Positions 27,385 to 45,144 of a stretch of DNA of 64,000 nt are shown one piece after another. Source of the stretch: an uncultured bacterium (lineage in GTDB: Bacteria; Fidelibacterota; Marinisomatia; SCGC-AAA003-L08; TS1B11); the NCBI GenBank assembly GCA_964621455.1, contig CAZULW010000005.1, positions 6,705 to 70,704 of the forward strand, read 5' to 3'. The notes beneath the pieces are model-generated. The model was not told the DNA's origin, made no database searches, and saw only the letters and a list, made by a program, of their open reading frames with translations. Both the position numbers and the translations under genes were made by a program. Position 1 is the stretch's first letter; the number at the start of each line of letters is the position of its first letter.

Positions 27385-27498
27385 TCACCGTCGGGCGAGA
27401 GCCCGGCGCTCCCGCAGCCAGTTACGCAGCATATAGGTCAGCACCATCACCCAGACACTGATGACGCAGGCCAGCAGATAGCCGTGATATTTATACAT
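27385..27498 (-). CDS. ccmD: Heme exporter protein CcmD (37 aa, below the ORF-track cutoff)
   Basis: MYKYHGYLLACVISVWVMVLTYMLRNWLRERRALARR has a single TM helix and a basic tail. It overlaps the ccmC stop by 8 nt. Confidence 0.65.
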   Translation of the reverse strand: MYKYHGYLLACVISVWVMVLTYMLRNWLRERRALARR

Positions 27499-28180
27499 CG
27501 CTCGCCTCCTCGGTTTGGGTGTTGCGCCTGAACTCCAGTTCCGCCACGTGGTGTCGATACAGGACCATATAGATCAGCATGAGTGTGAAGCTGAACAGGG
27601 AGAAGAAGAATATCCTCAGGATGCTGGAGGGCTGCCGGGCCATCTCCATCTGGGGGTGGCTCTGCACTTCGGCGGCCCACCAGGTAACGGCCGTGAGAAT
27701 CAGGGGGATATCGATCACCGCCAGGATAGCGATCACCGCCGCGTAGCGCGAGGCCCGCTCATAAGGCCCGCCGAACGCCCGGACCATAAAATACCCCACG
27801 AAGATGAGGAACAGGACCAGCGTGGTGGTGAGACGCGGCTCCCAGCTCCAGGGTTTCCCCCACATAGGTGTGGCCCAGATCGGCCCGGTGACCAGGATCA
27901 GCAGCGCGAAGAGAGTGCCCACCTCGGCGCCGGCCAGGGACCAGATATCCCATCGGGATCGGCGCGTGACCAGGTAGGCGGCGCCGGCCAGGGCCGTCAG
28001 CAGGTACGCCAGGAAGGCGTTCCAGGCCAGGGGCACGTGGTAGTAAAAGATTTTCTGGGCCATCTCCTGTTCCGGAACCACGGGGGCCACCTTGTAGATA
28101 AGCCACAGGTTAACGATGGCGGTCACCAGGGTAACCGCTAACAGGATTTGGTTACGCACTATACTGTGGAAAGACTGCAT
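27491..28180 (-). CDS. ccmC: Heme exporter protein CcmC
   Basis: WGKPWSWEPRLT (WGxxWxWD-type Trp-rich motif). 6 TM helices. Operon context. Confidence 0.92.
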   Translation of the reverse strand: MQSFHSIVRNQILLAVTLVTAIVNLWLIYKVAPVVPEQEMAQKIFYYHVPLAWNAFLAYLLTALAGAAYLVTRRSRWDIWSLAGAEVGTLFALLILVTGPIWATPMWGKPWSWEPRLTTTLVLFLIFVGYFMVRAFGGPYERASRYAAVIAILAVIDIPLILTAVTWWAAEVQSHPQMEMARQPSSILRIFFFSLFSFTLMLIYMVLYRHHVAELEFRRNTQTEEASDV

Positions 28181-28849
28181 TTATTGCTCCGAAATATAAT
28201 CAAATATGAAGGTGCCCGCTAAGACGAACAGGGCAAAAAAGGTCACCAGGAGCAGGAGCCAGAAGTCCCATTCCCCGAAGGGCCGCCCGGCAAGTGCGGC
28301 GCTGGTGGCCCGGGTGGCGGCGATCAGCAGGGGGGCTAGCAGGGGAAACAGCAGGATGGGCAGCAGCGTTTCACCTGCCGGAGAGCGCAGGCTCATGCCG
28401 GCGATGAGGGTGCCGACGGCGGCGATAGCCAGGTCGGTGATGACGAGAATGAGGGCCAGGGAAGCGGGCGCCCTCAGCAGGGGCATTTCCAGGAATAGTC
28501 CGAACAGTGGCAGGCTCACCAGCTGGGCCGCCAGCAGAAAGACGAAGAACGCCGCCGCTTTGCCCAGGTAGATCGCGCTGCGGTCCACCGGCGCGGTGAG
28601 CAGCAGGGAATAGGCCTCCAGCTCCTTCTCCTGACCGAAGGACCGCAGCAGACCCAGCACCGCGGTGAAGAAGTAAGTCAGCCACATCAGGCCCGGGGTG
28701 AAAGCCCGGAACTGGGCGGTACCGGCGTCGAAGGCGAAGGAGAACAGCAGAATGACCGCCGCGGCGAAGACCACCATAGTCGACAGGCTCTCGCGGGTGC
28801 GCAGCTCCAGACGGAGATCTTTGACGAAGACGGTCCAGAAAGCCATCAC
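28181..28849 (-). CDS. ccmB: Heme exporter protein CcmB
   Basis: 222-aa polytopic membrane protein between ccmA and ccmC. It abuts ccmC with no gap. Confidence 0.9.
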   Translation of the reverse strand: MMAFWTVFVKDLRLELRTRESLSTMVVFAAAVILLFSFAFDAGTAQFRAFTPGLMWLTYFFTAVLGLLRSFGQEKELEAYSLLLTAPVDRSAIYLGKAAAFFVFLLAAQLVSLPLFGLFLEMPLLRAPASLALILVITDLAIAAVGTLIAGMSLRSPAGETLLPILLFPLLAPLLIAATRATSAALAGRPFGEWDFWLLLLVTFFALFVLAGTFIFDYISEQ

Positions 28850-29544
28850 GGAACCTCGCGGCCCAGGTGTGGGAGCAAGTCTCTTTCTCCGGGTGCTGCC
28901 ACGTCCCTGGCAATGATACCCCGGCTGAGGAGGAGCGCCCGGTCCGCCCGGGCCACTCCCCAGCCTAGGTCGTGGCTGGTGAAAAACACCGTCCGGCCCT
29001 GAGACCGCCAGCGCGCCATTGTCTCGCTGAGCAGCTCCGCGCCGTCCACATCCAAGGCCGTCGCGGGCTCGTCCAGCAGGGCCAGTCGCCAGGTAGCCAG
29101 CTCCAGGCGTATCAGTCCCAGACGCTGCAGCATCCCTTCGGAGTAGACCCGCACCGGCTCGCCTTCGCGACCCGCCAGCCCGTAGCGGTCCATGAGGGTT
29201 TGAAACGCCTTTTTGTCCCAGGCCTGCCCGCGCAGCCGGGTGCTGAGCATCAGGTTTTCCCGGGCGGTGAAGGCGGGGTAGAGATTGGGGTGGTGCCCCA
29301 GGTAGACCATGTCCCGCCGCCAGGCGCTGCCAGCAGTGAACAGGGGCCGCCCGTTCAGGCTGGCGGTTCCGTTTTCGGGGTGCATGATGCCGGCCAGGAT
29401 GCGCAGCAGGGTGGTCTTACCGCTGCCATTGCGGCCCGCAAGCAGGACCGCCTCCCCGGCGGCCAGGGAAAATGATACGTCCCGCAGCACCGGGCGCAGG
29501 TGGAAAGATTTGGAAATGTGTTCTGCGGTGAAAAGTTCAGCCAA
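28846..29544 (-). CDS. ccmA: Cytochrome c biogenesis ABC ATPase CcmA
   Basis: Walker A GRNGSGKT, ABC signature-like YSEGMLQRL and Walker B LALLDEP. It overlaps ccmB by 4 nt. Confidence 0.92.
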   Translation of the reverse strand: MAELFTAEHISKSFHLRPVLRDVSFSLAAGEAVLLAGRNGSGKTTLLRILAGIMHPENGTASLNGRPLFTAGSAWRRDMVYLGHHPNLYPAFTARENLMLSTRLRGQAWDKKAFQTLMDRYGLAGREGEPVRVYSEGMLQRLGLIRLELATWRLALLDEPATALDVDGAELLSETMARWRSQGRTVFFTSHDLGWGVARADRALLLSRGIIARDVAAPGERDLLPHLGREVP

Positions 29545-29556
29545 GGGAACAGACGG

Positions 29557-30042
29557 CTAATTCAGCAGTCCCCGGCCGCAGCTGGCACAGAATCGGTCGC
29601 CGGACTGCACCACCGCGCCGCAGCCGGGACAAGTATCCCCCACCGCCGTGCCGCAGCTGCTACAGAACCTGGTGCCGGGTCCGATGAGCGTTCCACAGTC
29701 GGGACAGACGAGCTCCTCAGCGGGTGCCGGTGCGGGGCCTACCGGCGGGACCTGCTCTATCAGCGCACCCTCCAGCTGACGCATGACCTGTGTCACCTCG
29801 GCTAGAAGATCGGCCTGGGTGCGATTGAAGTCCTGTTCATCTATCAGCCCCATCTCCCGCTCGAACTCCACCTCCCGGATCTGCTTGTACAGATTGACCT
29901 TGCGCAGTTCCAGGGCGGTGGCCCGGGTAGCCGCGTCCTCGCCCACCGTCGCCACCTTCTCAGACGCAAACGGTACCAGCACATAATAGGCTGGGCCGAT
30001 AGCGACCAGGATAAGAACAACCAGAGGCAGAAGCGTATCCAT
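29557..30042 (-). CDS. CcmI-N-terminal-like TM module fused to a double zinc ribbon
   Basis: The ATG at 30042 lies next to the ccmH stop. TM helix MDTLLPLVVLILVAIGPAYYVLVPF, then KVNLYKQIREVEFEREMGLIDEQDF (CcmI-like), then CPDCG...RFCSSCG and CPGCG...RFCASCG. Confidence 0.7.
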   Translation of the reverse strand: MDTLLPLVVLILVAIGPAYYVLVPFASEKVATVGEDAATRATALELRKVNLYKQIREVEFEREMGLIDEQDFNRTQADLLAEVTQVMRQLEGALIEQVPPVGPAPAPAEELVCPDCGTLIGPGTRFCSSCGTAVGDTCPGCGAVVQSGDRFCASCGRGLLN

Positions 30043-30043
30043 C

Positions 30044-30520
30044 TCAGATGTCCAGCTCCTGCATTTCCTTGTTGATCTTCTCCAGAAATTCGTTGTCATA
30101 GGGTTTGCGCGCGGCTGGAGCGGCCTGCGGGGCCGGCTGCCCCTTGATCCGGCTGATGAAATAGATCAACAGCAGTCCACCCACCAGGAGGATCAACGGC
30201 GGCATGATGTAGGCCAGCAGGTTGAAACCCCGGGCGCGGGGCCGGGCCAGGATTCGCTCGCCGTAAATGGCCACATACATATCCAGGATTTCCTCCTTGG
30301 TCCTACTTTCCGCCAGTAGCCGGGCAATCTGGGCCTTCACCTGCCGGGCGGCTTCCGAATCGTGGTCTCCGACGGGGCTTCCATAGCAGCAGGGGGCCAT
30401 GATCTCGTATCCCAGCTCGCGCTGCAGAGCTTCCTGGCCCTCTAGGACGGTCGGCTCTTCCTGGCAGACAGCTGCCGCTGCCGGCAAGATAAGCGATAAT
30501 ACCAGAACGATACGGATCAT
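30044..30520 (-). CDS. ccmH: CcmH/NrfF-family protein lacking the canonical CxxC (has a vicinal CC)
   Basis: The ATG at 30520 overlaps the ccmF TGA (ATGA). MAPCCYGSPVGDHDS...YVAIYGERILARP followed by a TM helix. Confidence 0.8.
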   Translation of the reverse strand: MIRIVLVLSLILPAAAAVCQEEPTVLEGQEALQRELGYEIMAPCCYGSPVGDHDSEAARQVKAQIARLLAESRTKEEILDMYVAIYGERILARPRARGFNLLAYIMPPLILLVGGLLLIYFISRIKGQPAPQAAPAARKPYDNEFLEKINKEMQELDI

Positions 30521-32490
30521 GCCAGTTTCTCCTTCAGCCGCCGGTCGGTGCGGCTGGGCCAGATGGCCACCAGGGTGCCGAGGACCGCAATAATGCTCCC
30601 CAGCCATACCATCTGCACCAGGGGATTGATCATGATTTTCAAGGCAACGCTCTGGTTCTCCGTGCTGATTCCGCCCACGATGGCGTACAGGTCCCGCAGG
30701 GGCCGGGAATGAATCGCCACCTCCGAGTGAGGCTGTTGGTTCTGATCGGTGTATATCCGCCGCTCGGGCCTGAGCACGGTCACCGGCCGGTCCCTGCGGC
30801 TTACCGAGAGCTGCGCAATCCAGGCGCTGTGGTTGGACCGTTCCGCCACGTAGTAGCGGTCCAGCGTGAACACATACCCTTTCAGCAAGACAGTTTCTCC
30901 GGGCTTGAGGGCCAGCTCCCGCTCCGTGGTGAAGGCCTTGCCGACAAAGCCGATGAACATAAATAGAACCCCAAGGTGGACGATGGCCCCGCCGTACCGG
31001 CTGCGGTTCTTATCCACCATGTTCCGCAAGGCCGTAAGGGGCGACTCACCGCCGATTCTGCGCCGGGCCCGGATGCCACGCACCGCTTCTATAATGATGC
31101 CCGCCAGCACAAAGGCGACCAGTGCGAAGGTTACCAGTGGATATACCTGCCGCAGACCGAGTAGCATGCCCGCAGCCGCTGCTATGATGGCCGCCGCCAC
31201 CGGCGGTGTGAAGTTCCGTCTCAGGGTCCTCCAGGAGGTGCGCCGCCAGGCCAGCAGGGGACCCACCCCGAGTATCACCAGCAGCAGCAGCCCCATGGGA
31301 ACGGTGGTGCGGTTAAAGTAGGGCGATCCCATGGTGATCTTGGTGCCCCGCACCGCTTCGGACAGAATGGGGAACATGGTGCCCCACAGCACCGCCAGGG
31401 CCAGGGCCACGAAGATCATATTGTTGAAGAGAAATCCGCTCTCGCGGCTGGCGAACGACTCCATGCGGTTCTGCGAAGTCAGTTCACTTCTGCGCAGGAT
31501 CACCAGGGTGACGCAGGTTAGAATGATGACCAGGACAAAGCCGAAGAACCAGATACCCAGTTCGCTGGCGGCGAAGGCGTGAACCGACGAGAGGATGCCG
31601 CTGCGCGTAAGGTACGTACCGAAGATGGTCAGAATGAACGTGGACATGATGAGGATCACGTTCCACAGGCGGAGCATGTTCTTCTTTTCCTGGATACGCA
31701 CCGAGTGGAGGTACGCGGTAGCGGTGAGCCAGGGCAGGAGGGAGGCGTTTTCCACCGGGTCCCAGGCCCAGTAGCCTCCCCAGCCCAGTTCCATGTAAGC
31801 CCACAGGCCGCCCAGGATGATGCCTATCCCCAGGAACATCCAGGGCAGAAGGGTCCAGCGGCGGGTGAAACGGACCCAGGTGGCATCCATGCGCCGGTTG
31901 ACCAGCGCGGCCACGGCAAACGCAAACGGCACTACAAAGCCCACGTATCCCAGATAGAGCACAGGCGGATGTATCAGCATTACCGGATGCTGCAACAGGG
32001 GGTTGAGACCCATGCCGCGGACGGAGACCTCGGCCCCCGGAGGCAAGGGAGTGAAGGGATTCTCGAAAAAATAGGTGACGATCAGGAAAAAGAGCATCAC
32101 CACCGCCAGCACCAGGTTCACCACCGGCATGAGGGACAAGTTACGGCGACGGTTGAGGTAGCCTACCAGGAGGACGTACACGCCCAGCACAGCAAGCCAG
32201 AACAGCAGGGAGCCCTCCATGCCCGCCCACAGACCGGCGAACTTGTAGATGGTAGGGGTAGCGGCGCTGCTGTAGCGGGCCACGTATTCCAGGCCGAAGT
32301 TGCTCGTCAGCAGCTGGTGGGTCAGAGCCAATGTGGCCGCCAGCACCAGCAGTGCCGAGACCCGGAGTCCCCGCTGGGCCCCGACGAAATACCGCCGGTC
32401 GCGGTTAGCCAGGTAGAGAAGGCTTAGAACCAGCGTCAGAGTGCAGAAGATCAGCGCCAGTTGCAGGCAGGTCGAGCCTAGGAGCACCAT
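30517..32490 (-). CDS. ccmF: Cytochrome c-type biogenesis protein CcmF (heme lyase component)
   Basis: 657 aa. WGGYWAWDPVEN Trp-rich motif. Many TM helices. Confidence 0.95.
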   Translation of the reverse strand: MVLLGSTCLQLALIFCTLTLVLSLLYLANRDRRYFVGAQRGLRVSALLVLAATLALTHQLLTSNFGLEYVARYSSAATPTIYKFAGLWAGMEGSLLFWLAVLGVYVLLVGYLNRRRNLSLMPVVNLVLAVVMLFFLIVTYFFENPFTPLPPGAEVSVRGMGLNPLLQHPVMLIHPPVLYLGYVGFVVPFAFAVAALVNRRMDATWVRFTRRWTLLPWMFLGIGIILGGLWAYMELGWGGYWAWDPVENASLLPWLTATAYLHSVRIQEKKNMLRLWNVILIMSTFILTIFGTYLTRSGILSSVHAFAASELGIWFFGFVLVIILTCVTLVILRRSELTSQNRMESFASRESGFLFNNMIFVALALAVLWGTMFPILSEAVRGTKITMGSPYFNRTTVPMGLLLLVILGVGPLLAWRRTSWRTLRRNFTPPVAAAIIAAAAGMLLGLRQVYPLVTFALVAFVLAGIIIEAVRGIRARRRIGGESPLTALRNMVDKNRSRYGGAIVHLGVLFMFIGFVGKAFTTERELALKPGETVLLKGYVFTLDRYYVAERSNHSAWIAQLSVSRRDRPVTVLRPERRIYTDQNQQPHSEVAIHSRPLRDLYAIVGGISTENQSVALKIMINPLVQMVWLGSIIAVLGTLVAIWPSRTDRRLKEKLA

Positions 32491-32499
32491 GGCAGAACT

Positions 32500-32760
32500 T
32501 TATCGTAGAGACCGCTGAGAGCGCAGAGAATGTTTTTCGTCAAGACAATAGAATCTTTTTCTTATCTGGGTCTGTATAATTCTCCGGGTTTTTCTTTTGA
32601 TCCAATCCCATCTCCGCGTACTATGCGATCCTTCGACTACGCTCAGGCTTCGTCGTGAACGTTCGGCTGAGCTCACGTCGAAGCCTCAGCCGAACGGACA
32701 AGCCTCTGTGGTTAGATCTCTTACCGCCTGAATCTATCCCTTCTACACGGCATATACAAC
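32500..32760. repeat. Repeat-laden spacer between ccmE and ccmF, with an 11-bp perfect hairpin
   Basis: gttcggctgag (32661-32671) pairs with ctcagccgaac (32685-32695). The ggctgagctcac block also occurs in attC-like site 2 (14007-14018). Confidence 0.6.
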
Positions 32761-32763
32761 GGT

Positions 32764-33150
32764 TCACTCGACCTCGTAGCGGGAGGCGCACTTGGTCATA
32801 AGGTTGTCCGCCGTGAAAACACCATTGCGGTACTCGCCCTCAATAATTACCTCGGCGCTGTCTTTGAACAGGTCCGGCGTCAGGCCGGAGTAGTGGACCG
32901 GCAGTCCTTTATCACCCTGGATCATAACAAAATCGACACTCAGCCGGTCAGCTGAGTGGACGATGGAGCCCGCTTCCACCAGCCCCCCCAGGCGTAAGCG
33001 GTGCTGTTCCCAGGTATCCTGATTCTCGTGCAATTCCGCAATACTCACGTAGGGCACCTCCTCCTCTTCGGTCCCGATAGTAAGCCAACCGAAGACGATC
33101 AGGGTGGCGGCTACGATGAGAATCACGAACTTGGTCCGTTTACTTTTCAT
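32764..33150 (-). CDS. ccmE: Heme chaperone CcmE, CxxxY-type
   Basis: N-terminal TM anchor and OB-fold-like core (LRLGGLVEAGSI...VHYSGLTPDLFKD). The C-terminus KCASRYE replaces the HxxxY motif. An alternative upstream ATG is at 33192. Confidence 0.9.
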   Translation of the reverse strand: MKSKRTKFVILIVAATLIVFGWLTIGTEEEEVPYVSIAELHENQDTWEQHRLRLGGLVEAGSIVHSADRLSVDFVMIQGDKGLPVHYSGLTPDLFKDSAEVIIEGEYRNGVFTADNLMTKCASRYEVE

Positions 33151-33271
33151 GGGATTAATCCTTATATCGATTTCCTTCGAGATGCCAGTCAAGGTCTTCC
33201 CTTAACGGGCCGATCCTGACACAAGGTTGGTAATTTACGTAGATATCCTTGATCCAACAGGAAATATCAGG

Positions 33272-35251
33272 TCAATTTACCTGTCCGGCGGCCAGACGGG
33301 TCTGCTCCTGGGATGGCAGATCTTCCAACGCCTGCCGGGCGAAGGGGGAGAGGTCGTCGTATACGATTTCGCCCTTACGGTAGCCTGCCAGCTCGCTCTC
33401 CAGCTCCTCGTAGTATCCGGCGTGCTTGTGGCGCCACTCCTCGACGCTCATCTTCCCGGTGACCATCACGCTGCTTCCCGGGTATTCCTCGGGATGGAAG
33501 ATAGTGAAGAAGAGATGCCAGACGACGATGGCCAGCGTGGCCAGCCAAGCTTCCCAGTAGTGCACGGCTTCGGATACCTTGATTAGCCAGACCGGGGTGG
33601 CCTCCCCGAGGATGGTCGGGAACCACAGAATGAAGCCCGTGAGACCCATGACGACCGCCCCCCAGGCCAGGGCCCAGTATTCGATCTTCTGGCCATAGTC
33701 GAACAGGCCGTACTTAACGTCGGGAGGACGCCCCTTCGCAGATGCGCGCATGTTGCGGGAAAAGTCCCTGACATCCCGCCTCAGGGGCAGCATCCGCAGC
33801 AGGTGCTGCCGTCCCCAGGGACTGGCAAGCGCGTAGACCAGGTGCCACGCCGCCACCGCCGCCATGGTCCCGGCCGCGATGCGGTGTATCAGACCGCGGG
33901 CGGTTTCCGTCAGTCCGAGGGAGCCGAGGACCCGCACCCAGCCCGCCTCGGGAAACTTGAGGGCGAACCCGGTGATCGCCAGGATAGTGAAGGAAACCAG
34001 CAGCAGTGTATGCTGCCAGACTTCCTGCACGGAAAAGCGGCGGATGGCCGGTGCAGCCGCTCCACCACCTTCAATGACCCTGGCCATTCCACGTTTGCGC
34101 TGCTTCAGGTAGCCGGTGAAAATGATGCCGTTATGGACCAACATGAAGCCGATGGTCCCGATAATGAGCACCACGTAGATGGTCTGCACGATATCCTCGA
34201 TCGGCGTCTCCCGGATGAGGAGCGAGGAGTGAGTGTAGGCCTGGGCGAACTGGGCGGTGGCGTTGGGATGGCACGTGGCGCAGGTACGTTGCAGGTTGGA
34301 GGGGTGAATGGTGGAGTTCTCGTGCTCCTGGCCGAGAATGGCGTGCACGCCGTGGCAGTCGAAGCAGCTGGCCGCGTCCTCATCACCCCGCAGGACAGCC
34401 AGGCCGTGGTAGCTGTCTCGGTAGGTGGCGGCCACGCCCTCCTGCAGTCCGTATTTCAGGGCCAGTTCATCGTCGGAATGGCACTTCAGACAGGTGTGGT
34501 CGGCCAGATCGCGCTTTTTGATAATGTCGTAGCGGCCGGTGGGGTCGCTGATGGCGTGTTCACCGTGGCAGGAGATGCAGGCCGGCGCGTCCCGAACACC
34601 CCGCTGGAGGGCCAGCCAGTGGTCGCTGCCATGGAATTCCTCGTACTCCTGCACGTGACAATTACCGCAGGTCTCCGCCACGTTCCAGTAATTGATGGTA
34701 GACCGTGAGTGCCGCTGGTTCTGGATGTCGTGGGTCCCGTGGCAGTTGTTGCAGGTAGCGGAGGCATAGCCTGACTCCTCGAGGACGCTGAAATGTATGC
34801 TCTGCTTGTAGCGGGTCACCGGGTTCAGAATGTCGATTTTGTGGCGCTCCACAAGTTCCGGATTGGCATGGCAGCGACCGCAGGTGCTGATCATATTGGC
34901 GGGATGCACTAGCGAGTTGCTGTCATCGGCGGACAGGATCTGGTGGTCGCCGTGGCAGTCGACGCAGGTGGCCACATCCAGCTGCTCCCCTGTCAGCAAC
35001 AGTCCATGTACACTGGCGGAGTGCTCGGCCCATTCATCCTCGTGGCAGCCGCCGCAGGCCTTCTCCTGGGAGAAGGGAGGCAGGGTTTCCTCCTCCACGT
35101 GCAGATCGAGGTCAACTTGCGTGTGGCAGGTTTCGCAGTCGAAGTCCTCGTGCACCGACACTTCGACGGAAACCTCGTGGCAGTCAAGACAAGGACTTTC
35201 TTGCGCCCATAAGGGAATAACCAGAAATAGTATACAAACCAGTTTCGTCAT
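33272..35251 (-). CDS. Fusion of an 11-heme cytochrome c with an FdnI/HydC-type diheme cytochrome b membrane domain (CbcL-like)
   Basis: Signal peptide and 11 CxxCH motifs in the first 340 aa. The TM domain then has RRFSVQEVWQHTLLLVSFTILAITG, IHRIAAG, EYWALAWG and HYWEAWLATLAIVVWH (b-heme His pattern). Confidence 0.9.
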   Translation of the reverse strand: MTKLVCILFLVIPLWAQESPCLDCHEVSVEVSVHEDFDCETCHTQVDLDLHVEEETLPPFSQEKACGGCHEDEWAEHSASVHGLLLTGEQLDVATCVDCHGDHQILSADDSNSLVHPANMISTCGRCHANPELVERHKIDILNPVTRYKQSIHFSVLEESGYASATCNNCHGTHDIQNQRHSRSTINYWNVAETCGNCHVQEYEEFHGSDHWLALQRGVRDAPACISCHGEHAISDPTGRYDIIKKRDLADHTCLKCHSDDELALKYGLQEGVAATYRDSYHGLAVLRGDEDAASCFDCHGVHAILGQEHENSTIHPSNLQRTCATCHPNATAQFAQAYTHSSLLIRETPIEDIVQTIYVVLIIGTIGFMLVHNGIIFTGYLKQRKRGMARVIEGGGAAAPAIRRFSVQEVWQHTLLLVSFTILAITGFALKFPEAGWVRVLGSLGLTETARGLIHRIAAGTMAAVAAWHLVYALASPWGRQHLLRMLPLRRDVRDFSRNMRASAKGRPPDVKYGLFDYGQKIEYWALAWGAVVMGLTGFILWFPTILGEATPVWLIKVSEAVHYWEAWLATLAIVVWHLFFTIFHPEEYPGSSVMVTGKMSVEEWRHKHAGYYEELESELAGYRKGEIVYDDLSPFARQALEDLPSQEQTRLAAGQVN

Positions 35252-35254: not shown

Positions 35255-37780
35255 TCAACCTTGGAAAAATGTACCTATAATTATGAAAATGAGCAGTAGA
35301 AAACCTATTGACAGAAACAGATAGGCACTGGCCAGGAGCAGATATTTGGTCCAGCGAGGCAAGGGGGAAACTTTCAGTTTATCGTATTCGTTGTCAGCAT
35401 CCAGTCGTTCCTTCTCCGTGGGACGTTCCTCGGCAAACCGTTCTTCCGTGAGATAGCCGGTGAAGATGACTTCATCCATGGGGAATGCCCCCGGGCGCAG
35501 GTGGGTATTGAAGAAGTGGACGGTAAAGATAAAAGCTGTAGCCAGCAGGGCTTCCTCGGAATGGATGATGTGAGCTACGTTAATGACCCATCCGGGAAAG
35601 AGCCTGGTGAACGTTTCCGGGAACCAGAGGGTCAGCCCGCTGGAACCGATGATGATCATACCCCAAAAAACGGCGTAGTAGTCAAATTTTTCCCAGTACG
35701 TCCAGCGATCGAACTTGGGTGGACGCTTTAGAGCCCCGATGAAATAGCCAAGATGTTGGTAGAAATCCTTGAAGTCCTTGGGACGGACCACCAGGGAATT
35801 AGGCCCATAGAAGAGGCCCTTCTCTTTCAGCACCAACCAGCGGTACAGTAATAAGAGGACATGAATAATGAATACGCTGACCAGGAGAGTGGCGGCAATG
35901 CGGTGGATGAGGGCAGCAGCCTGTAGGCTGAGGATGTTGTTCACGAACCAGGTGGCCAGGGGCGTATGGCTGTATTTCAAAGGCAGCCCGGTCGTAGCAA
36001 GGGTGAGGAAGGATAGGATCAATCCGAGATGTAGGAGTCGCTGAATCAGATGGAAGCGCTTGATTCGGTGCTTTGTCTTGACTTGGGGCGGTTTCTTTCC
36101 CTCGAATAAGCGCCGTATCAGCAGCCGGATGAGCCACAGGAGGGTATGGACACCGAAGATAATCATCACCGAGACCAGCAGCCACCGCATGAAGGTGTCC
36201 ACGCCTATAAGAATGGGATTTTCCTCGTGTTCCATGGGGTTGTAATGTTGCAGGTAGGATACGAAGTTTATGTTGGCGTCCTCATGGCACTGGGTACAGG
36301 TGTTCAGTATGTTCTGCTTACTGATGGTGGACTTGGGATCGTCGGCGGGCAGGACGCTATGGTTGTCATGGCACGAGGCGCAGGTGGCGAAATCGGTTCC
36401 CTGGTAGCCCAGCTGATAGACCTGCCCGTGATAAGTACTTTGATAGCCGGATACTACTTCCGGGCTGAGCTGGAACCGGAGGATGATTTCCCGGTTGCTG
36501 TGGCACGAGGCGCACAGGTCAACGATGGCCTTCCCTTTCAGGCTTTCCTCGGTTTTGGGGATGAACCGTTCGCCGTGACAGGTGGTGCAGGTGGGGGCTT
36601 CGGGATGGCCCTTGGCGGCGCTGGTCCCGTGAGAGGAACCTACCCAGGCGGCATGTTCTTCAGGATGGCACGCTTTGCATTCCCGTTTGATGCCGGTGAA
36701 AGCCGGATGCTCCGGCGCCCTGAAGTGGTACTGATGGCACTCGCCGCAGTTGACCGGCTCCCCGGCCCGGGCGGACTCGATCTTCTCGCCGTGGATCACC
36801 ATATGGGCTTCTTCCGGGCGGGCCAGCAACCCCTCCGCGTGACATAACAGGCATACGTTCGCCAGTCCGGTTTCGAAAATGGATGAGTGGGCGGTGGTCA
36901 TATTCGTGGAGTGCCCCACATGGCAAGCTACGCAGGTCTCCAGACGCGGGTCGTCGCCCTCGCGGGGACGGTGAATGGAAACCTCGTAGCCCGCATGACA
37001 GCGGGTACAGGTCAGATCCAGCCTGGCCACCGATAAAAGACTGTTGGGATCCCGGGGAGACAGAACCTGGTGCCTGGCATGGCAGTCGGAACAGACCGGG
37101 GCCTTCAAATTGCCCTGCTCGAGTTCCCGGAAGTGCTGTGAATCGGTGTAATTGGCCACCTCCCGCTCATGGCAGACGTTGCACGACTCCACCAGGTGCA
37201 TCTTCCACTGGTGGGGCGTGTACTGACCCTTCTCCATCTTGAAGTGCGGATTGTGGCACGAAACACAGGTGACCTCCTGTGTGACCTCATCGGCTTTCCA
37301 GTGCCGGGAGGCCAGGAAGTCTTCCAGCACATCCTGATGGCATACGCCGCACACCTGCCGCGGGTGCCCGACCCACGACACCTCGTGCCGACCGTGGCAG
37401 TCGGAGCAGTTGGGGATGGAAGTGTAGCCCTTCTGCATCAGGGGGCCGAAGAAGCCCTCCACAAAGACCGCCTGCTCTTCTTCGTGGCAAGACCCGCAGT
37501 CCGGCAGGACCAGGCGTTCCCGGTGCGGCCAGTCGTCCACACCGGCCAGTTCGGTGTGGCAGTCGACACAGGCGAAATCCGCATGCGGGCTGTCCGCCAG
37601 GTGCTCACTGGTGACATACAGCGAGAGCTCAATCCCGTACCGGACCACTTTATGGTCGGGATCGTCATGGCAGGTCTCGCAGGTCTCGTTGTCCTGGGCA
37701 TGCAAGGGGAACAGCATGAGGAGCACCAGGGAAAGGCCCAGGGTAAAGGGGCGTATGTGACCGGCTGAAAATCCAATCAT
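35255..37780 (-). CDS. Fusion of a 17-heme cytochrome c with an FdnI/HydC-type cytochrome b membrane domain (CbcL-like, expanded)
   Basis: Signal peptide and 17 CxxCH motifs in about 500 aa. The TM domain then has IKRFHLIQRLLHLGLILSFLTLATTG, IHRIAATL, YWEKFDYYAVFWG and HIIHSEEALLATAFIFTVH. Confidence 0.9.
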   Translation of the reverse strand: MIGFSAGHIRPFTLGLSLVLLMLFPLHAQDNETCETCHDDPDHKVVRYGIELSLYVTSEHLADSPHADFACVDCHTELAGVDDWPHRERLVLPDCGSCHEEEQAVFVEGFFGPLMQKGYTSIPNCSDCHGRHEVSWVGHPRQVCGVCHQDVLEDFLASRHWKADEVTQEVTCVSCHNPHFKMEKGQYTPHQWKMHLVESCNVCHEREVANYTDSQHFRELEQGNLKAPVCSDCHARHQVLSPRDPNSLLSVARLDLTCTRCHAGYEVSIHRPREGDDPRLETCVACHVGHSTNMTTAHSSIFETGLANVCLLCHAEGLLARPEEAHMVIHGEKIESARAGEPVNCGECHQYHFRAPEHPAFTGIKRECKACHPEEHAAWVGSSHGTSAAKGHPEAPTCTTCHGERFIPKTEESLKGKAIVDLCASCHSNREIILRFQLSPEVVSGYQSTYHGQVYQLGYQGTDFATCASCHDNHSVLPADDPKSTISKQNILNTCTQCHEDANINFVSYLQHYNPMEHEENPILIGVDTFMRWLLVSVMIIFGVHTLLWLIRLLIRRLFEGKKPPQVKTKHRIKRFHLIQRLLHLGLILSFLTLATTGLPLKYSHTPLATWFVNNILSLQAAALIHRIAATLLVSVFIIHVLLLLYRWLVLKEKGLFYGPNSLVVRPKDFKDFYQHLGYFIGALKRPPKFDRWTYWEKFDYYAVFWGMIIIGSSGLTLWFPETFTRLFPGWVINVAHIIHSEEALLATAFIFTVHFFNTHLRPGAFPMDEVIFTGYLTEERFAEERPTEKERLDADNEYDKLKVSPLPRWTKYLLLASAYLFLSIGFLLLIFIIIGTFFQG

Positions 37781-37871
37781 GGTTTGCAGAGATCTTTTTG
37801 GGAACTATTCATAGTTATAGTAATCAGCCCGGATGAAGGTGTTGTTGTTTTACCGGGATTACCGGATGGGG

Positions 37872-38672
37872 CTAGTTCCCAAATACATTCTTTACGCCGT
37901 TGATATGCTTTTGTGTATCGATGATCGTTCGGTGGTCCTGGCTGCTTACGACGCCGGAGTGGCATAGGCCACAGGCACTGGATGCGATGTGGCCTGCAGG
38001 AGGGAGTGCGTGGCAGGTGCCGCACAGATTGCCAGTGACCGGTGTGGTCCAGGTCCAGGTGGAGTCATTTCCCGTAACCCCATTGAGGTCAAAGGCGCCG
38101 TGACAATAAACGTCGCTGCAGGTCTTGGCAGAGCGCTCCCAGACCGGGGAGAGTGTGCCCTTGGCAGTGGCCAAGCTGTCAAAGGTCACCTCGGCGTAGT
38201 AGGGGGTGTCGTCGTCGATATGCCCCGCCGCCCAGACGGAATCGGGCACCACATGACAGGAAGCGCAGGAGACGTTAGAGGTCAAACTATGGGCGGCCGT
38301 GTAGTGGCTGGTGTGCATCCCGACGGTCACCCGATCGGAGCTCGTCCGGCCTTTCACATCAACGAACGGATCGCTGTCAAGGTATCCGTGGCAGTTATCG
38401 CAGGCGTAGATGGCATCCAGAGCGGACTGGCCTTGGGAAGCGGTGTGGCATTCATCGCTGCTGCATCCATCCACCTCATCCGTCCCATTCAGCTCGGCAC
38501 CGTGACATGCCTGGCATGAGGTAAGGTCGTAGTTAATGACCTGGAGCTTTTCAATATGTCCCGTTTCCCAAGCTTCAGGGTGCGGGCTGTCATCCTCTTC
38601 GAATTCGGTGCACCCCCAGGCCGCGAGCACCAGCAAAACTGCGATTCCGCCAAGCGGTCGTCTAGTAATCAT
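37872..38672 (-). CDS. Lipoprotein multiheme cytochrome (5 CxxCH plus 2 CxxxxCH; Geobacter CxxxxCH...CxxCH-type)
   Basis: Lipobox LAAWGC. Motifs CQACH, CDNCH, CASCH, CGTCH, CGLCH plus CSSDECH and CSDVYCH. Confidence 0.88.
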   Translation of the reverse strand: MITRRPLGGIAVLLVLAAWGCTEFEEDDSPHPEAWETGHIEKLQVINYDLTSCQACHGAELNGTDEVDGCSSDECHTASQGQSALDAIYACDNCHGYLDSDPFVDVKGRTSSDRVTVGMHTSHYTAAHSLTSNVSCASCHVVPDSVWAAGHIDDDTPYYAEVTFDSLATAKGTLSPVWERSAKTCSDVYCHGAFDLNGVTGNDSTWTWTTPVTGNLCGTCHALPPAGHIASSACGLCHSGVVSSQDHRTIIDTQKHINGVKNVFGN

Positions 38673-39609
38673 GACACCCCAGCCTCAGACAGGTGTTGTC
38701 TCTGGCCGGTTCGTGACAGACCACGCAGTAGTCAGGCCGGTCCAGCCCTTCCTGGGCGTGAAAGCCACAGGCCGTACACTCTACTTCGGGAGGGGCCGCC
38801 CCGGAGGGGTCGTCGTGGCTGCCACTGAGAGCCCAGAAGGGGTTATTGTGGCTCAGGGGCATGACCCCCTTGGCAAGGTGACAGCTCTGGCACTCCTGGG
38901 GGATAGCGTGACAGGTGCTGCACTCTTTCTCAAAACTCAGAAAGTCTCCGGCATGGACGAATTCATAGTTGGCCGGATGGACCTGCTTTTCCAGCTGGGC
39001 TTGGGCGTGGCAGCCCTCGCAGTCGGTCTGCTGGTGACACATGGCACAATCATCGCCGGTGGAGCCATGGACAAACAGCCCGTGGTTCTGGGTCCAGCCC
39101 AGGCCGTGGCTGGCCGGCAGCTTGCCCTCCAGGGAGGCATGGCAGGCATAGCAACCGGCATCGGTGAGGGGCACGGTGTGGCAGTCCATGCAAGGTTCCA
39201 TCTTTGGCGGTGTCCGGGGCACCAGGGCTTCGCTGCTAGCCGTGGTGGGATGGCACTGGCTGCATTCGGTCTGCGGCAGGTGGGTCTGATGCGGGAACAG
39301 CAGACCGGGAGTGGGCTGCCATGTGTAAGTCGTCGGATCATCGGGCCGGGTGTGGCAGGCGGAACACTCCTCCGAGGCCGTGTCACCGTCATGGCAGGCG
39401 CTGCATTGGTCCATGATCGGCAGCAGGTCGTGGGTTAAGCGGGTACTGGTCTCCACCCCTTCGTGACACTCACCGCATTCCAGGCCCATATCCTCGACGT
39501 GGGTAACGTGGGGGAAGATAATGCGATCGCGGGGTTCCTGCGCGGTGACCAGGACGGCCTGCAGCCCCGCGTATGCCAGCAGCCCGTAGAGCAGCAGACT
39601 AGAACGCAT
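38662..39609 (-). CDS. Periplasmic dodecaheme-type cytochrome c (11 CxxCH plus 1 CxxxxCH)
   Basis: Signal peptide MRSSLLLYGLLAYAGLQAVLVTAQ. Densely spaced heme motifs of c3/c7 type. 11-nt overlaps with both neighbouring genes. Confidence 0.9.
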   Translation of the reverse strand: MRSSLLLYGLLAYAGLQAVLVTAQEPRDRIIFPHVTHVEDMGLECGECHEGVETSTRLTHDLLPIMDQCSACHDGDTASEECSACHTRPDDPTTYTWQPTPGLLFPHQTHLPQTECSQCHPTTASSEALVPRTPPKMEPCMDCHTVPLTDAGCYACHASLEGKLPASHGLGWTQNHGLFVHGSTGDDCAMCHQQTDCEGCHAQAQLEKQVHPANYEFVHAGDFLSFEKECSTCHAIPQECQSCHLAKGVMPLSHNNPFWALSGSHDDPSGAAPPEVECTACGFHAQEGLDRPDYCVVCHEPARDNTCLRLGCHDY

Positions 39610-40867
39610 AGCTCACTTGCAAACCAACACGCCCATCCTGGTTGAAGAGACGGTTGCGGGTAAACTGGGTGAACAGCCGATAACTGAAACGGCCGGTGCT
39701 GGATCCTTGCAGCCAGAACGTTGCGGCCAGGGAAGACCGGGTAGCCCGGGCCTGAGCAGCATCCAAGATACCCGCGGAAGTCATGTGGGAGACAGCATCG
39801 GAATTTTCATCGAAAAGGGTGTAGCTGCCGGCGCCGATACTCCCTCCGGCCTGCAGGTGACCAGACAGGCGGCGCTGGCCGCTGAGCTGCACGTAGTGGC
39901 CCTCGTAGATCGATTGGTCGTTGGCCTGCCAGGTGAACATCAGGCCGCCCCAGGCCAGTTGCGCCTTGAGGTACCTATCGTCGCGATTACCCAAACGCTG
40001 ACTGAGGCTCACCCTCAGCTGCAATCCTTTAAATGGCGACCAATGCGCGCCCGCCGAGAGGTTTTGCCGGGGGGCGAAAGTTGGGTTGGAGACCCAGGGG
40101 TAAGGGTTGAGGGACAGCTGTCCCGCATAGCGGTACTGGACGTATACGATGCCCGTCTGCGTCAGACGCACCTGGGTCCTGAGCCGGATCTTCTCGGGAT
40201 TTTTAGCCGTGAGGTTAAAGGCCAGGTCGGCAACCTGGGTCAGTCGCGACCCAAGTCTACGGCGCAGAGAGCCGCCAAGGTAGAAGTTGAGCGTGCCGGT
40301 CATATGGGTGGCCCAGGCCTGCAGGCCGTAGCGGCTGGAGCCGTTGGTGAGCTGGAACATGCCGCCAGCCATCGGCTTGCCGGCCTCACCGTAGTCGGTG
40401 CGCAGTTCGGTATCCGGCGTCTGGCCGGCGTAGAGGGTCAGCTGCCGGCTGTTGCGGAAGGTGCCGGTATGCCTGCCCAGGGCAATGCCGTCGAAGCGGG
40501 CGGTCTGGAGGTTGTTCCAGAGGAATTGCCGGCCCAGGGTCACCTTCCAGTCGGGTGTGATCCCGGCTTGAATCTGTCCGGAGTAGAGGCGCAGCCCGGC
40601 CGGGCGGGTGAGAGTTGCCGGGGTGATCTCACCCAGGAAATGCCAACTCACCCGTTGGGTGAGCTGGTGCCGCACGGTGAGCTGTCCCCGCCAGACTAGG
40701 GATTCCGTCGCCGTGATGTCGCTGCGGGGGTAGACGAACGTGCCTCGCAGGACGGCTTCCGGCTTGGCGGCCTGAACCGTAGAACCTGCAAGGAGCATCC
40801 CAACCAGGAATGCCGGGATGGAGCGTAGGGCGAATGAACGGCTTTTATGTGGTGAAAACGATTCCAT
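39599..40867 (-). CDS. Outer-membrane beta-barrel (porin-like) protein, first gene of the cytochrome cluster
   Basis: Signal peptide ...STVQAAKP. Alternating hydrophobic/polar strands rich in Y/G/R/Q/T. Terminal ...GLQVSYAF aromatic OMP signature. Confidence 0.8.
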   Translation of the reverse strand: MESFSPHKSRSFALRSIPAFLVGMLLAGSTVQAAKPEAVLRGTFVYPRSDITATESLVWRGQLTVRHQLTQRVSWHFLGEITPATLTRPAGLRLYSGQIQAGITPDWKVTLGRQFLWNNLQTARFDGIALGRHTGTFRNSRQLTLYAGQTPDTELRTDYGEAGKPMAGGMFQLTNGSSRYGLQAWATHMTGTLNFYLGGSLRRRLGSRLTQVADLAFNLTAKNPEKIRLRTQVRLTQTGIVYVQYRYAGQLSLNPYPWVSNPTFAPRQNLSAGAHWSPFKGLQLRVSLSQRLGNRDDRYLKAQLAWGGLMFTWQANDQSIYEGHYVQLSGQRRLSGHLQAGGSIGAGSYTLFDENSDAVSHMTSAGILDAAQARATRSSLAATFWLQGSSTGRFSYRLFTQFTRNRLFNQDGRVGLQVSYAF

Positions 40868-41296
40868 GGAGGCTGAAAAGTTATCTATATCAGGACAACG
40901 AACTCAAATTTAATTTATGCCCGTTTATGAGGCCGGCTATGCCGACCGCGGGCTGGCGGCTGGCTCCTCGTCCGGCACACCCTGGACCTGGTGCCTCAGG
41001 CGCCCGACGTTCCGGTTGCTCGCCCGGTATTATAATGTCGCATCTCCGGACGGGATGCCGAGCGGGACGGCATTATGCCGGCTTGAACTATTTCCTGTAT
41101 AACAAAACCAATTCAAGACTCAGTCCGTAAAATGACTAATTACACAATTTTAACAGTATATCTTAGCCGATTTCGGTAGAGTTGATTATAAAAATATATG
41201 CTTGTCTCTTTTATGTCTTGATAATAAACTCGTAGGTGTTAATGAAGTTTGTATGATCTTTTTCGTAAGTTTTTATAAAGTGCAGGAGGTGGAAAA

Positions 41297-42382
41297 GTGA
41301 TTAATTTCACCAGGAATCCCAAACTATATTTCATTCCAGCCCTCATTGTCGGGATGACAGTCATGTTTTTCGGCTGTGAAGGCCCTGAAGGTCCCGCGGG
41401 CTCTGAGGGTCTGCAAGGCCTGCCGGGGGCTGACGCCAATGAAACCTGCAAAGTCTGTCATAGTGATGGGGACGAGCCGATTAAGGTACGACAGTTACAA
41501 TGGGCGGCCTCTACTCATGCTACAGGCGGTAATTTTGAACGGAATGATACCGATTGTGCCCCTTGCCATACCAGCCAGGGCTTTCTGGAAGTCGTGGCAA
41601 CGGGAGCAGACACAACCGTAGCAGACATTTCAAATCCAGCCCCGCAGAATTGCCGCACGTGTCACCAAATTCATAGTACGTACACGTGGGCCGATTTTGC
41701 CTTGACAGATACGACTGCATTTACCCCCAGGATTGATCTTACAGCATCCATTGACATTGGAAAAGGAAACCTTTGTGCCAGGTGTCATCAACCGAGGTTG
41801 CCTGATCCCATGCCGACAGTTGGTGGCAGTGATGTTGTCATAGGTTCCAAATATTGGGGACCCCACTACGGTGCCCAAGGCGCCATTCTCGCGGGAGTTG
41901 GCGGTTATGAAGTTACGGGCTCCCCTTATACAAATAGCTCCCATACCGCCGCGATAACTGACGGGTGTGTTACCTGCCACATGGCGGATGCATATGGTAT
42001 TAAAGCTGGCGGGCATACGATGAATGTATCGTATGATTACTATGGCACTGTAGTCAATCAAGCAGGATGTCTAGCAGCGTGCCATCCAGAAGGCGAAGAT
42101 GCGCTTGAAACAAAAATCGCAGATAGAAAAGCGGCAATTGACGCTTTGCTTGCTGATGTAAAGGCGCTCTTAATAACCGCCGATGCCCTGGATGATACCG
42201 ACCACGTTGTCCCGGGTACGCTAACCGCGCTCAACGCTGGTGCCGTGGTCAACTACCTTCTGGTTTTGAAAGATAGAAGCGGAGGTGCGCATAACTTCGC
42301 TTATGCCAGCGCACTATTAACAAACACAAAAGTGGCCCTAGAAGCTGCACCTGCTGCTCCAAAAAGGGTTGCTTTTAGGTAA
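41297..42382 (+). CDS. Lipoprotein multiheme cytochrome with a short collagen-like (GXY)6 segment after the lipobox
   Basis: AGGAGG RBS and GTG start. Lipobox MFFGC followed by E-GPEGPAGSEGLQGLPGAD. Motifs CKVCH, CAPCH, CRTCH, CARCH, CVTCH plus CLAACH. Confidence 0.88.
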   Translation: MINFTRNPKLYFIPALIVGMTVMFFGCEGPEGPAGSEGLQGLPGADANETCKVCHSDGDEPIKVRQLQWAASTHATGGNFERNDTDCAPCHTSQGFLEVVATGADTTVADISNPAPQNCRTCHQIHSTYTWADFALTDTTAFTPRIDLTASIDIGKGNLCARCHQPRLPDPMPTVGGSDVVIGSKYWGPHYGAQGAILAGVGGYEVTGSPYTNSSHTAAITDGCVTCHMADAYGIKAGGHTMNVSYDYYGTVVNQAGCLAACHPEGEDALETKIADRKAAIDALLADVKALLITADALDDTDHVVPGTLTALNAGAVVNYLLVLKDRSGGAHNFAYASALLTNTKVALEAAPAAPKRVAFR

Positions 42383-42404
42383 TAGCGTTTCTTCAAAGAA
42401 AAAA

Positions 42405-45133: not shown

Positions 45134-45144
45134 GGGATGATGAT

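Follow-up and report, generated by a model that had tools for sequence, protein, structure and literature searches.

A Candidate Envelope-Spanning Electron Conduit of the Porin–Cytochrome Type in an Uncultured Member of the Fidelibacterota

Organization of the Locus

The stretch of DNA considered here (hereafter, the window) comprises 64,000 nucleotides (nt) of contig CAZULW010000005.1 (positions 6,705 to 70,704 of the forward strand; assembly GCA_964621455.1) from an uncultured bacterium of the phylum Fidelibacterota (also referred to as Marinimicrobia or SAR406), and the subject of this work is a run of minus-strand genes within it, which starts with a predicted outer-membrane beta-barrel protein, continues with four multiheme c-type cytochromes, and would probably encode an electron conduit of the porin–cytochrome type.

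The three open reading frames (ORFs) to which a first-pass annotation of the window had drawn attention overlap, just as was stated there, by 11 nt at each junction (39599–39609 and 38662–38672). The first of them (39599..40867, minus strand; ATG...TAG) encodes a 422-amino-acid (aa) protein devoid of cysteine, whose signal peptide ends ...STVQA/AKPE and whose C-terminal end reads VSYAF, the C-terminus ...DGRVGLQVSYAF being conserved. The second (38662..39609, minus strand), the start codon of which falls within the last codons of the barrel gene (TATGCGTTCTAG), encodes a 315-aa periplasmic cytochrome with a Sec signal peptide, no lipobox, and 11 CxxCH motifs plus one Cx4CH motif, whereas the third (37872..38672, minus strand) encodes a predicted outer-membrane lipoprotein cytochrome of 266 aa (lipobox ...LAAWG-C) with five CxxCH and two Cx4CH motifs, both motif counts agreeing with those given previously. 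Treating this trio as the unit, although correct as far as the three genes themselves are concerned, understates its extent: two more multiheme genes continue the operon past position 37872 on the same strand (35255–37780 and 33272–35251), and cytochrome c maturation (ccm) genes follow. The five genes, all co-directional, are joined by overlaps of 11 and 11 nt and then set apart by 91 and 3 nt. Their c-heme motifs add up to 12 + 7 + 17 + 11 = 47, and 19 of these belong to the outer module (the 315-aa and 266-aa cytochromes), and this module and the quinol-side one fit together in approximately 7.6 kb. The functional unit is, accordingly, one of five genes that includes an inner-membrane quinol-side module. 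A scan of the operon returned no terminator-like sites between the five genes, the promoter and terminator scans yielding site numbers no higher than those in shuffled sequence, while a strong hairpin terminator is found at 42402–42440, 3' of the gene for a divergently transcribed lipoprotein cytochrome of 361 aa. An Rrf2 regulator, present upstream in relatives, was not found at the window locus.

The Outer-Membrane Barrel

The 422-aa protein had been proposed to be an outer-membrane barrel on account of its beta-strand periodicity and terminal ...VSYAF, and this proposal is borne out by an AlphaFold2 (AF2) model built on an alignment of 19 homologues (predicted local distance difference test, pLDDT, 76.8; predicted template modelling score, pTM, 0.66), which has 22 beta strands after the signal helix. 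The turns following the even-numbered strands in this model are all two to four residues long (periplasmic), all of the long loops follow odd-numbered strands (external), and there is no plug or cork domain; such a strand/loop asymmetry is, as modelled, that of a classic outer-membrane topology. Simple barrel geometry gives a backbone diameter of approximately 40 Å for 22 strands, and a barrel of these predicted dimensions would be too wide to stay open and wide enough to accommodate a heme rod.

Assignment of the protein to some known outer-membrane protein family was attempted and had to be rejected, as nothing beyond a generic barrel likeness came out of the comparisons with Pfam, NCBIfam, the PDB (by sequence and by profile) and Foldseek. 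Neither Pfam nor NCBIfam gave a match, no PDB sequence was matched at E ≤ 10 by either the single sequence or the profile as a query, and Foldseek with the barrel model retrieved generic large outer-membrane barrels only, such as the 24-strand ushers FimD/PapC (template modelling scores of about 0.5) and the 22-strand BtuB (0.46), with MtrB missing from the top 50 matches. The first-pass annotation had named a non-barrel prediction, or membership of an unrelated outer-membrane protein family with an occluded lumen, as grounds for abandoning the idea of a conduit; the comparisons above returned a plug-less 22-strand model and no match to another such family.

The mature barrel is strongly basic (net charge +22, isoelectric point 10.7, 36 Arg). 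When each predicted strand was split into its two alternating sides and the polar side was taken as the lumen, the lumen-facing strand positions held 18 Arg and 3 Lys as opposed to 3 Asp and 2 Glu, and 28 invariant alignment columns fell on the lumen face versus 15 on the lipid face. The mature 315-aa cytochrome, on the other hand, has a net charge of −29 even before its 24 propionates are counted, and the same opposition recurs in eleven further loci (barrels from +1 to +22, cytochromes from −18 to −44). Judging by the sequences, a basic barrel next to an acidic cytochrome suggests the look that would be expected of a sheath around an acidic partner.

The Periplasmic Dodecaheme Cytochrome

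The mature 315-aa protein has approximately 24 residues per heme, and its N-terminal half consists of two c7-type triheme domains (Pfam Cytochrome_C7, 1e-11; NCBIfam nanowire_3heme, TIGR04257, 40.2 bits against a cut-off of 40), the repeated c7-type triheme arrangement being recognizable in that half only. It matches c7/c3-type models exclusively and is not, as far as these models can tell, a decaheme cytochrome of the MtrA/DmsE type. In the PDB, the sequence most similar to it is that of 3OV0 (a cytochrome c family protein of 318 aa; E 2.6e-15), which we take to be GSU1996, the dodecaheme c7-type "nanowire" cytochrome of Geobacter. GSU1996 has its 12 hemes built from c7-type triheme units and is not known to belong to an outer-membrane conduit. 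The two proteins are of near-equal length, yet only the first two triheme domains of the window protein (residues 30–145) align, to three 3OV0 domains in turn, and its C-terminal six hemes are arranged otherwise.

All 12 heme sites show no or next to no variation when the 315-aa protein is aligned with 23 homologues, which implies that the motifs are under selection rather than there by chance, and ten further His residues conserved in the same alignments are candidate distal ligands. The single Cx4CH motif (CLRLGCH, at residue 307) has an ordinary CxxCH as its counterpart in most orthologues and should, for this reason, be regarded as a real twelfth site with a two-residue insertion.

A segment peculiar to the window allele, ALSGSHDDPSGAAPPEVECTACGFH, is found at about residues 260–285 (window 38700–38790) and brings two extra Cys (CTAC, with no His after it), while the orthologues are shorter there (...GDGGFH...).

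The Lipoprotein Cytochromes

The 266-aa protein, the N-terminus of which reads ...LVLAAWGC, has its two Cx4CH motifs at residues 70 (CSSDECH) and 185 (CSDVYCH), and it matches the CxxxxCH/CxxCH domain TIGR01904 (3e-10) as well as PF09698. No named Geobacter protein is found among its 56 homologues. The lipid Cys is directly followed by an acidic stretch (C-TEFEEDD) and then by HPxxW, and this N-terminus is conserved in the homologues (W-G-C-T-E-L-x-[DE]-[DE]...HPxxW, with the post-Cys family consensus T-E-L-[SG]-[DE]-[DE]) and, in a looser form, kept across loci (C-[TS]-[ED]-x(3-6)-H-P-x-x-W). It has been reported for Bacteroidetes that a polar residue together with acidic residues at positions +2 to +6 (SDDDD, SDDFE, K-(D/E)2) suffices for the export of lipoproteins to the cell surface (PMC5080379). 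The stretch of the window protein is of a comparable, surface-export-signal-like (LES-like) composition. Since the Fidelibacterota and the Bacteroidetes belong to the same superphylum, this resemblance makes exposure at the surface the likelier of the two orientations for the 266-aa lipoprotein, and by this analogy it would be a surface-exposed terminal cytochrome.

The outer lipoprotein cytochrome is, at the same time, the variable, exchangeable part of the conduit: across loci, the lipoprotein cytochromes have from 7 to 27 heme motifs. The remark in the first-pass annotation that the proteins are compact thus holds for the window allele and fails for the family, in which some orthologous lipoprotein cytochromes reach 25–27 motifs.

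The divergent 361-aa lipoprotein cytochrome (41297..42382, plus strand; lipobox ...FFG-C; five CxxCH and one Cx3CH) has six collagen-like G-X-Y triplets (GPEGPAGSEGLQGLPGAD) directly after its lipid Cys, and it shares, over its heme part, 27.5% identity with a 9-heme cytochrome of 683 aa encoded at 793–2844 of the related locus L003. The latter protein carries a type IX secretion C-terminal domain at its end (it matches Por_Secre_tail) and would, on the strength of that domain, be a multiheme cytochrome exported by this system. The 361-aa cytochrome is a possible additional cell-surface partner.

The Inner-Membrane Cytochromes and the Maturation Genes

The fourth and fifth genes of the unit encode inner-membrane cytochromes of 841 aa (35255..37780, minus strand) and 659 aa (33272..35251, minus strand), each with a signal peptide, a multiheme c domain (17 and 11 CxxCH, respectively) and, after the last heme motif, transmembrane helices: a C-terminal multi-helix cytochrome b domain in the former and five predicted helices in the latter. 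Both match Pfam Ni_hydr_CYTB (4e-8 and 2.9e-13), and the 659-aa protein also matches TIGR01583 (formate dehydrogenase gamma; 1.6e-16) and, with its C-terminal domain, E. coli FdnI (PDB 1KQF_C; E 1.3e-5). The four heme-b ligands of FdnI in 1KQF (His18, His57, His155 and His169) have H414, H456, H564 and H579 as their aligned counterparts in the 659-aa protein; the C-terminal domains of the two paralogues are 31% identical and all four His align between them. The combination of a multiheme c domain with a C-terminal b-type domain that retains the b-heme His is the architecture of the CbcL/MtrH/MtoC family, in which 3–23 CxxCH motifs are fused to a HydC/FdnI-like b cytochrome in proteins of 416–1034 aa (PMC6295460). 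The DmsE model (TIGR03508) was matched by the 841-aa protein only, and at 85.9 bits against a cut-off of 192.2.

System I cytochrome c maturation genes, recognized by Pfam and NCBIfam models, lie directly downstream of the 659-aa gene (27491..33192, minus strand), in the order ccmE-like (32764–33192, a CxxxY variant), ccmF (30517–32490), ccmH (30044–30607), a zinc-ribbon protein within the run (29557–30099), ccmA (28846–29544), ccmB (28181–28849) and ccmC (27491–28180), all of them on the minus strand; the related genome L003 has the same ccm arrangement (blastn synteny was also examined). The CcmE-like ORF ends ...KCASRYEVE, i.e., with CxxxY in place of the classical HxxxY, and co-occurs with CcmH. 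CxxxY-variant CcmE heme chaperones are known from Desulfovibrio and archaea.

Distribution and Gene Context of the Barrel Family

Relatives of the barrel were sought in three ways. A word-indexed search returned 20 barrel clusters, the named ones all being from metagenome-assembled genomes (MAGs) of Marinimicrobia, Neomarinimicrobiota or Fidelibacterota and annotated as "hypothetical protein"; a scan of one genome per species (185,579 species) gave nine barrel loci, six in Fidelibacterota/Neomarinimicrobiota and three in unclassified "uncultured bacterium" MAGs; and an exhaustive HMMER search of 1.84 billion representative proteins with a profile of 19 barrels found 38 relatives at E ≤ 0.001. 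Every named source among the 26 of these 38 matches that were looked up was Marinimicrobia/Fidelibacterota with the exception of one "Simkaniaceae" MAG, and nearly all of the remaining matches are tied to labelled or context-checked members by BLASTP similarity at E ≤ 1e-15. The exception, the 1659-aa protein P0027, has 21 short repeated matches to the barrel profile and was taken as a repeat artefact.

Gene context was compared across 12 distinct loci (the window and L001–L004, L006, L016–L018, L020, L023 and L024), in which barrel identities range from 93% down to matches at E = 3e-4. Close homologues in settings unrelated to cytochromes, which the first-pass annotation had named as one ground for giving up the idea, were not encountered among them: in 12 of the 12 contexts, a c7-type cytochrome of 270–315 aa with 11–12 heme motifs comes directly after the barrel, and the same pairing is seen in L008, L011, L012 and L015 from the genome scan. 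The 11-nt overlap between the two genes is usual in the relatives, including those with barrels that are 43–52% identical to, or only profile-detectable from, the one in the window. The barrel and the 12-heme cytochrome are, then, the conserved core, translationally coupled via the 11-nt overlap. A lipoprotein cytochrome is encoded third in most loci, and most of those long enough to show it continue with a 17-heme b-fused cytochrome (~830–870 aa) and then a cytochrome of ~650–665 aa, the latter being of the b-fused kind in the close group and resembling NapC/NirT in the distant one.

The cytochrome alone is a poorer guide. Since its distant homologue P0148 sits in an FeS/NrfD inner-membrane complex and not in a conduit, the c7 cytochrome family is not in itself diagnostic of one. 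In L022, a similar cytochrome and two heme-b-fused cytochromes stand behind an unrelated putative porin (489 aa), which was considered as a member of the same barrel family and rejected (hhalign probability 0.1%).

Some observations on individual relatives may be added. In L002, a complete Fidelibacterota genome, the core pair is accompanied by an 862-aa heme-free protein (with a weakly FlgD_ig-like C-terminus) and then a 355-aa protein, and a CxxxxCH/CxxCH protein (P0209) is encoded on the same 3.11-Mb contig. A distant sub-family (L019/L020, 5414–7769; L024, 3238–5938) has a rhodanese lipoprotein and an extra 8–10-heme cytochrome just upstream of the barrel, while L017 (216–5744) and L019/L020 have, within a few kb, psrABC-like genes together with sulfur-transport proteins and a further rhodanese. 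The public collection has the L019/L020 barrel (P0049) indexed in 253 of its blocks, which makes one distant version of the cluster very widely recovered.

The window also shows a break in DNA identity relative to L015 (CAZQOY010000213.1): over window 37788–40900, identity is 50–84% across the barrel, 12-heme and lipoprotein genes, and rises to 96–100% below approximately window position 37925, in a stretch made up of the tip of the lipoprotein gene, the spacer and the first 600 nt of the 841-aa gene. Either the trio is a cassette that very close relatives have exchanged by recombination, or the break stems from a chimera in the co-assembled contig.

A Probable Conduit and the Alternatives to It

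Taken together, the genes of the region quite probably make up a complete electron conduit of the porin–cytochrome type that spans the cell envelope. All three architectural features by which the Geobacter conduits have been described (PMC6148476) are present: a multiheme cytochrome in the periplasm, a beta-barrel, and a lipoprotein that is redox-active, the WG-C lipobox of the latter being conserved in homologues. Quinol would be oxidized (or quinone reduced) at the FdnI-like di-heme b domains of the two fused cytochromes, and electrons would be passed down the periplasmic heme chains of these (17 and 11 hemes) and on to a c7-type rod with 12 hemes; this acidic rod would cross the periplasm and sit in the positively lined lumen of the plug-less 22-strand barrel, and the 7-heme lipoprotein on the outer face would take the electrons over for delivery to an insoluble or extracellular acceptor, with the divergent 6-heme lipoprotein as possibly a further surface recipient. 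The same chain could equally well operate in the opposite direction. The analysis shows the gene content with its heme motifs, the predicted barrel, the four b-heme ligands, the conservation of synteny, the charge complementarity and, with one exception, the confinement of named barrel relatives to Marinimicrobia/Fidelibacterota; from these results we infer the insertion of the cytochrome in the barrel, the surface exposure of the lipoprotein, the direction of the flow and the natural substrate.

Several points weigh against this interpretation, which rests entirely on prediction. The AF2 model of the 12-heme cytochrome (24 sequences) is too poor for a fold search (pLDDT 55, pTM 0.38), and the barrel model, itself derived from only 19 sequences, has two low-confidence external loops (249–266 and 349–377), either of which could fold into the lumen. 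Hydrophobicity was used for assigning the strand faces, which makes the contrast between them partly circular, although neither the charge's sign nor the bias in conservation depends on that assignment. The Trp at position −2 of the lipobox is atypical, yet conserved. At L002 (12196–15898), the barrel and the 12-heme cytochrome occur without an adjoining heme lipoprotein or b-fused cytochromes, and no feature of the window points to an external substrate or to a direction of flow.

The first of the alternatives, which we regard as unlikely, is that the same conduit works inward, carrying electrons from Fe(II) (dissolved or mineral), a cathode-like surface or a syntrophic partner to the quinone pool through the two heme-b-fused cytochromes, in the manner of MtoAB/MtoC or PioAB of iron oxidizers. 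The CbcL/MtrH/MtoC family occurs in metal reducers and oxidizers alike, no sequence feature telling the direction (PMC6295460), and a Rieske/cytochrome b complex with a 9-heme cytochrome (8838–11658), along with other respiratory modules of the window, could serve as electron sinks. The two-component conduits of oxidizers, MtoAB and PioAB, however, are without an outer lipoprotein cytochrome (PMC4245776), and the window has one, as reducers do; that no carbon-fixation or terminal-oxidase genes were seen beside the cluster argues in the same direction, if weakly either way.

Somewhat less likely still is a conduit devoted to extracellular sulfur chemistry, be it the reduction of S0/polysulfide particles or the oxidation of sulfide minerals. 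The rhodanese lipoprotein and extra multiheme cytochrome upstream of the barrel in L019, L020 and L024, and the psrABC-like molybdopterin oxidoreductase, sulfur-transport proteins and rhodanese near the cluster in L017, L019 and L020, would fit such a role, as would the Geobacter ExtHIJKL system, which pairs a rhodanese lipoprotein (ExtH) with a conduit barrel (PMC6148476), and the molybdopterin oxidoreductase/FeS/NrfD set of the window itself (2539–7085). This molybdoenzyme, however, is more than 30 kb away from the cluster, and there is no rhodanese in or beside the cluster in the window, L001, L003, L004, L006 or L016; it is the distant sub-family, and not the window locus, for which the neighbouring genes suggest a link to sulfur.

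That there is no trans-outer-membrane conduit at all, the barrel being an ordinary porin or transporter, the cytochromes a periplasmic electron store or reductase supply and the lipoprotein inward-facing, is very improbable: the complex and the surface exposure do rest on inference and the lipobox is atypical, but an unfilled plug-less 22-strand barrel with short loops would be a very large open hole, in none of the 12 contexts does the barrel lack its c7 cytochrome, and their 11-nt coupling is conserved, a basic barrel faces an acidic partner with the conserved residues mostly lumen-facing, and the acidic post-Cys stretch of the lipoprotein resembles a surface-export signal.

Comparison with Known Conduits

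The first-pass annotation had likened the trio to the OmbB–OmaB–OmcB system of Geobacter, and it was right in that both have the same three-part plan with the genes in the same order (porin, periplasmic cytochrome, lipoprotein cytochrome) and not as regards the closest analogue. The outer cytochromes share atypical Cx3-4CH motifs, and the 266-aa cytochrome carries TIGR01904, a domain first defined in Geobacter; OmaB, however, has 8 hemes as opposed to the 12 c7-type hemes of the window protein, and atypical motifs were not seen by Shi et al. (2014, PMC4245776) in the periplasmic cytochromes of the porin–cytochrome (Pcc) family, whereas the window family has Cx4CH at one periplasmic heme site in some lineages. 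Pcc membership was defined there by a BLAST E < 0.01 to OmbB/OmaB/OmcB (PMC4245776). Homology of the barrel to OmbB/OmbC was judged indirectly and none was seen, the 19-barrel profile having reached almost only Marinimicrobia-labelled proteins, and no named Geobacter or Ignavibacterium protein is found among the homologues of both outer-module cytochromes.

The nearest Geobacter analogues are ExtEFG and ExtABCD, with OmbB–OmaB–OmcB less close. The former two have dodecaheme periplasmic cytochromes and 5-heme lipoproteins, ExtF and ExtC (PMC6148476), and thus share with the window the combination of a barrel, a periplasmic dodecaheme cytochrome and small lipoprotein cytochrome(s), albeit with 5 hemes there and 7 in the window protein; in both cases, the outer lipoprotein is the part most often replaced between relatives. 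ExtEFG, moreover, shares a transcription unit with an NiFe hydrogenase (PMC6148476), while the hydrogenase of the window is 2.3 kb off, beyond the divergent 361-aa cytochrome gene. The differences include the order of genes, which in the window is barrel, periplasmic cytochrome, lipoprotein, and the predicted strand number of the ExtB/E/I barrels (18–21 versus 22 in the window model); Geobacter cbcL and imcH sit elsewhere, whereas the quinol-side cytochromes of the window are in the conduit operon. No relationship of the barrel to the Ext porins was detected, the exhaustive profile search having matched the Marinimicrobia-type family only.

MtrCAB of Shewanella has 20 hemes, and its barrel MtrB has 26 strands. 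Likeness to MtrCAB/MtoAB/PioAB lies in the proposed multiheme rod in a barrel and in the surface lipoprotein cytochrome cap, the 19 hemes of the outer module nearly equalling those of MtrCAB; yet the window model has 22 strands instead of 26, and the window cytochromes are c7-type, not MtrA/DmsE-type. The check for membership in the MtrABC and PioAB families that had been proposed with the first-pass annotation came out negative, as the barrel matches neither the MtrB/PioB model (TIGR03509, or any other NCBIfam model) nor the MtrB structure, be it by PDB sequence or within the Foldseek top 50.

As to the inner-membrane proteins, their motif numbers (17 and 11) and lengths (841 and 659 aa) fall inside the ranges of the CbcL/MtrH/MtoC family, the genes of which are sometimes clustered with conduits; the likeness is one of architecture, and the window differs in that two paralogues follow the outer-membrane module immediately downstream, in tandem. 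The survey of this family (PMC6295460) lists 15 phyla, and Marinimicrobia is not one of them.

A precedent for naming non-homologous porin–cytochrome types from conserved clusters with an inner-membrane b-type protein exists in PCC3 and PCC4 of iron oxidizers (PMC5566968). PCC3, however, has cytochromes with a median of 21 and 34 hemes, an inner-membrane protein of ~300 aa that is separate and not fused to c-hemes, and mostly proteobacterial hosts. Going by sequence comparison, the window barrel family would be a porin–cytochrome conduit by architecture and a separate, phylum-restricted lineage, since similarity of its barrel to MtrB was not detected and nothing pointed to shared ancestry with other known conduit porins; it would be a further non-homologous conduit type after PCC3 and PCC4.

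Significance

Porin–cytochrome conduits are, to our knowledge, the only established route for respiratory electrons through the Gram-negative outer membrane, and those studied experimentally come from Proteobacteria and Desulfuromonadia. Fidelibacterota have so far been treated as fermenters or sulfur/nitrogen respirers. A literature search found no report tying Marinimicrobia/Fidelibacterota/SAR406 to porin–cytochrome systems, multiheme cytochromes, extracellular electron transfer or iron reduction; the one cultured member of the phylum is characterized as an obligately dependent heterotroph (PMC11652737). The first-pass annotation had also stressed the non-Geobacter setting within the Fibrobacterota–Chlorobiota–Bacteroidota (FCB) superphylum, which is indeed that of the window, but is not new in itself, an FCB Pcc cluster (IALB_1837–1839, with a 14-heme periplasmic cytochrome) having been known from Ignavibacterium album since 2014 (PMC4245776). 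The mechanism class is familiar. No description was found in the literature of the barrel lineage, of this phylum as a host, of a link within one operon to two CbcL-type cytochromes or of a sheath complementary in charge to its wire.

If the interpretation of the locus as a conduit is true, a new host phylum for extracellular electron conduits would be added, members of which could respire minerals, humics, particles or partner cells. It is quite possible, and is advanced here tentatively, that the Fidelibacterota own an independently evolved conduit with an Arg-lined 22-strand barrel, an acidic c7 wire, two quinol-side cytochromes in one operon and an outer cytochrome cassette that close relatives swap. 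The design of a sheath around a heme wire would in that event have evolved at least once more, because the barrel appears unrelated to MtrB and other conduit porins. Charge complementarity would provide a clear, testable rule for a conduit, the compact operon of ~7.6 kb would be attractive for transfer to other hosts, and the barrel profile could serve as an annotation marker for genes that are now "hypothetical protein" and neighbour cytochromes with generic names, e.g., "cytochrome c3 family protein".

Other Features of the Window

The window holds, in total, eight c-type cytochrome genes with 67 CxxCH motifs and two FeS/NrfD modules, the molybdopterin oxidoreductase/FeS/NrfD set at 2539–7085 having been recognized by family matches. 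Encoded in a row at 7363–11658 (plus strand) are a cytochrome c with four CxxCH, a Rieske protein, a cytochrome b and a 9-heme cytochrome of 419 aa, which make up a bc-type complex to which a multiheme subunit is attached. Further features are a CusA/CusB/outer-membrane-factor type heavy-metal efflux system, the membrane-fusion protein of which has heavy-metal-binding domains (19980–26626, minus strand), and a four-gene cytoplasmic NiFe hydrogenase (ShyB/C/A-like plus a small subunit; 43188–47162, plus strand) that resembles group 3b sulfhydrogenases.

A 1346-aa beta-helix/NosD/fn3 protein is encoded at 48425–52465 (plus strand). Its last 120 residues score 21.2 bits with Por_Secre_tail (cut-off 27), FlgD_ig being sub-threshold as well, and are 36% identical (E 8e-19) to the C-terminal domain of the L003 cytochrome; as that domain does match Por_Secre_tail, the statement in the first-pass annotation that the contig carries a protein with a type IX secretion C-terminal domain is probably right.

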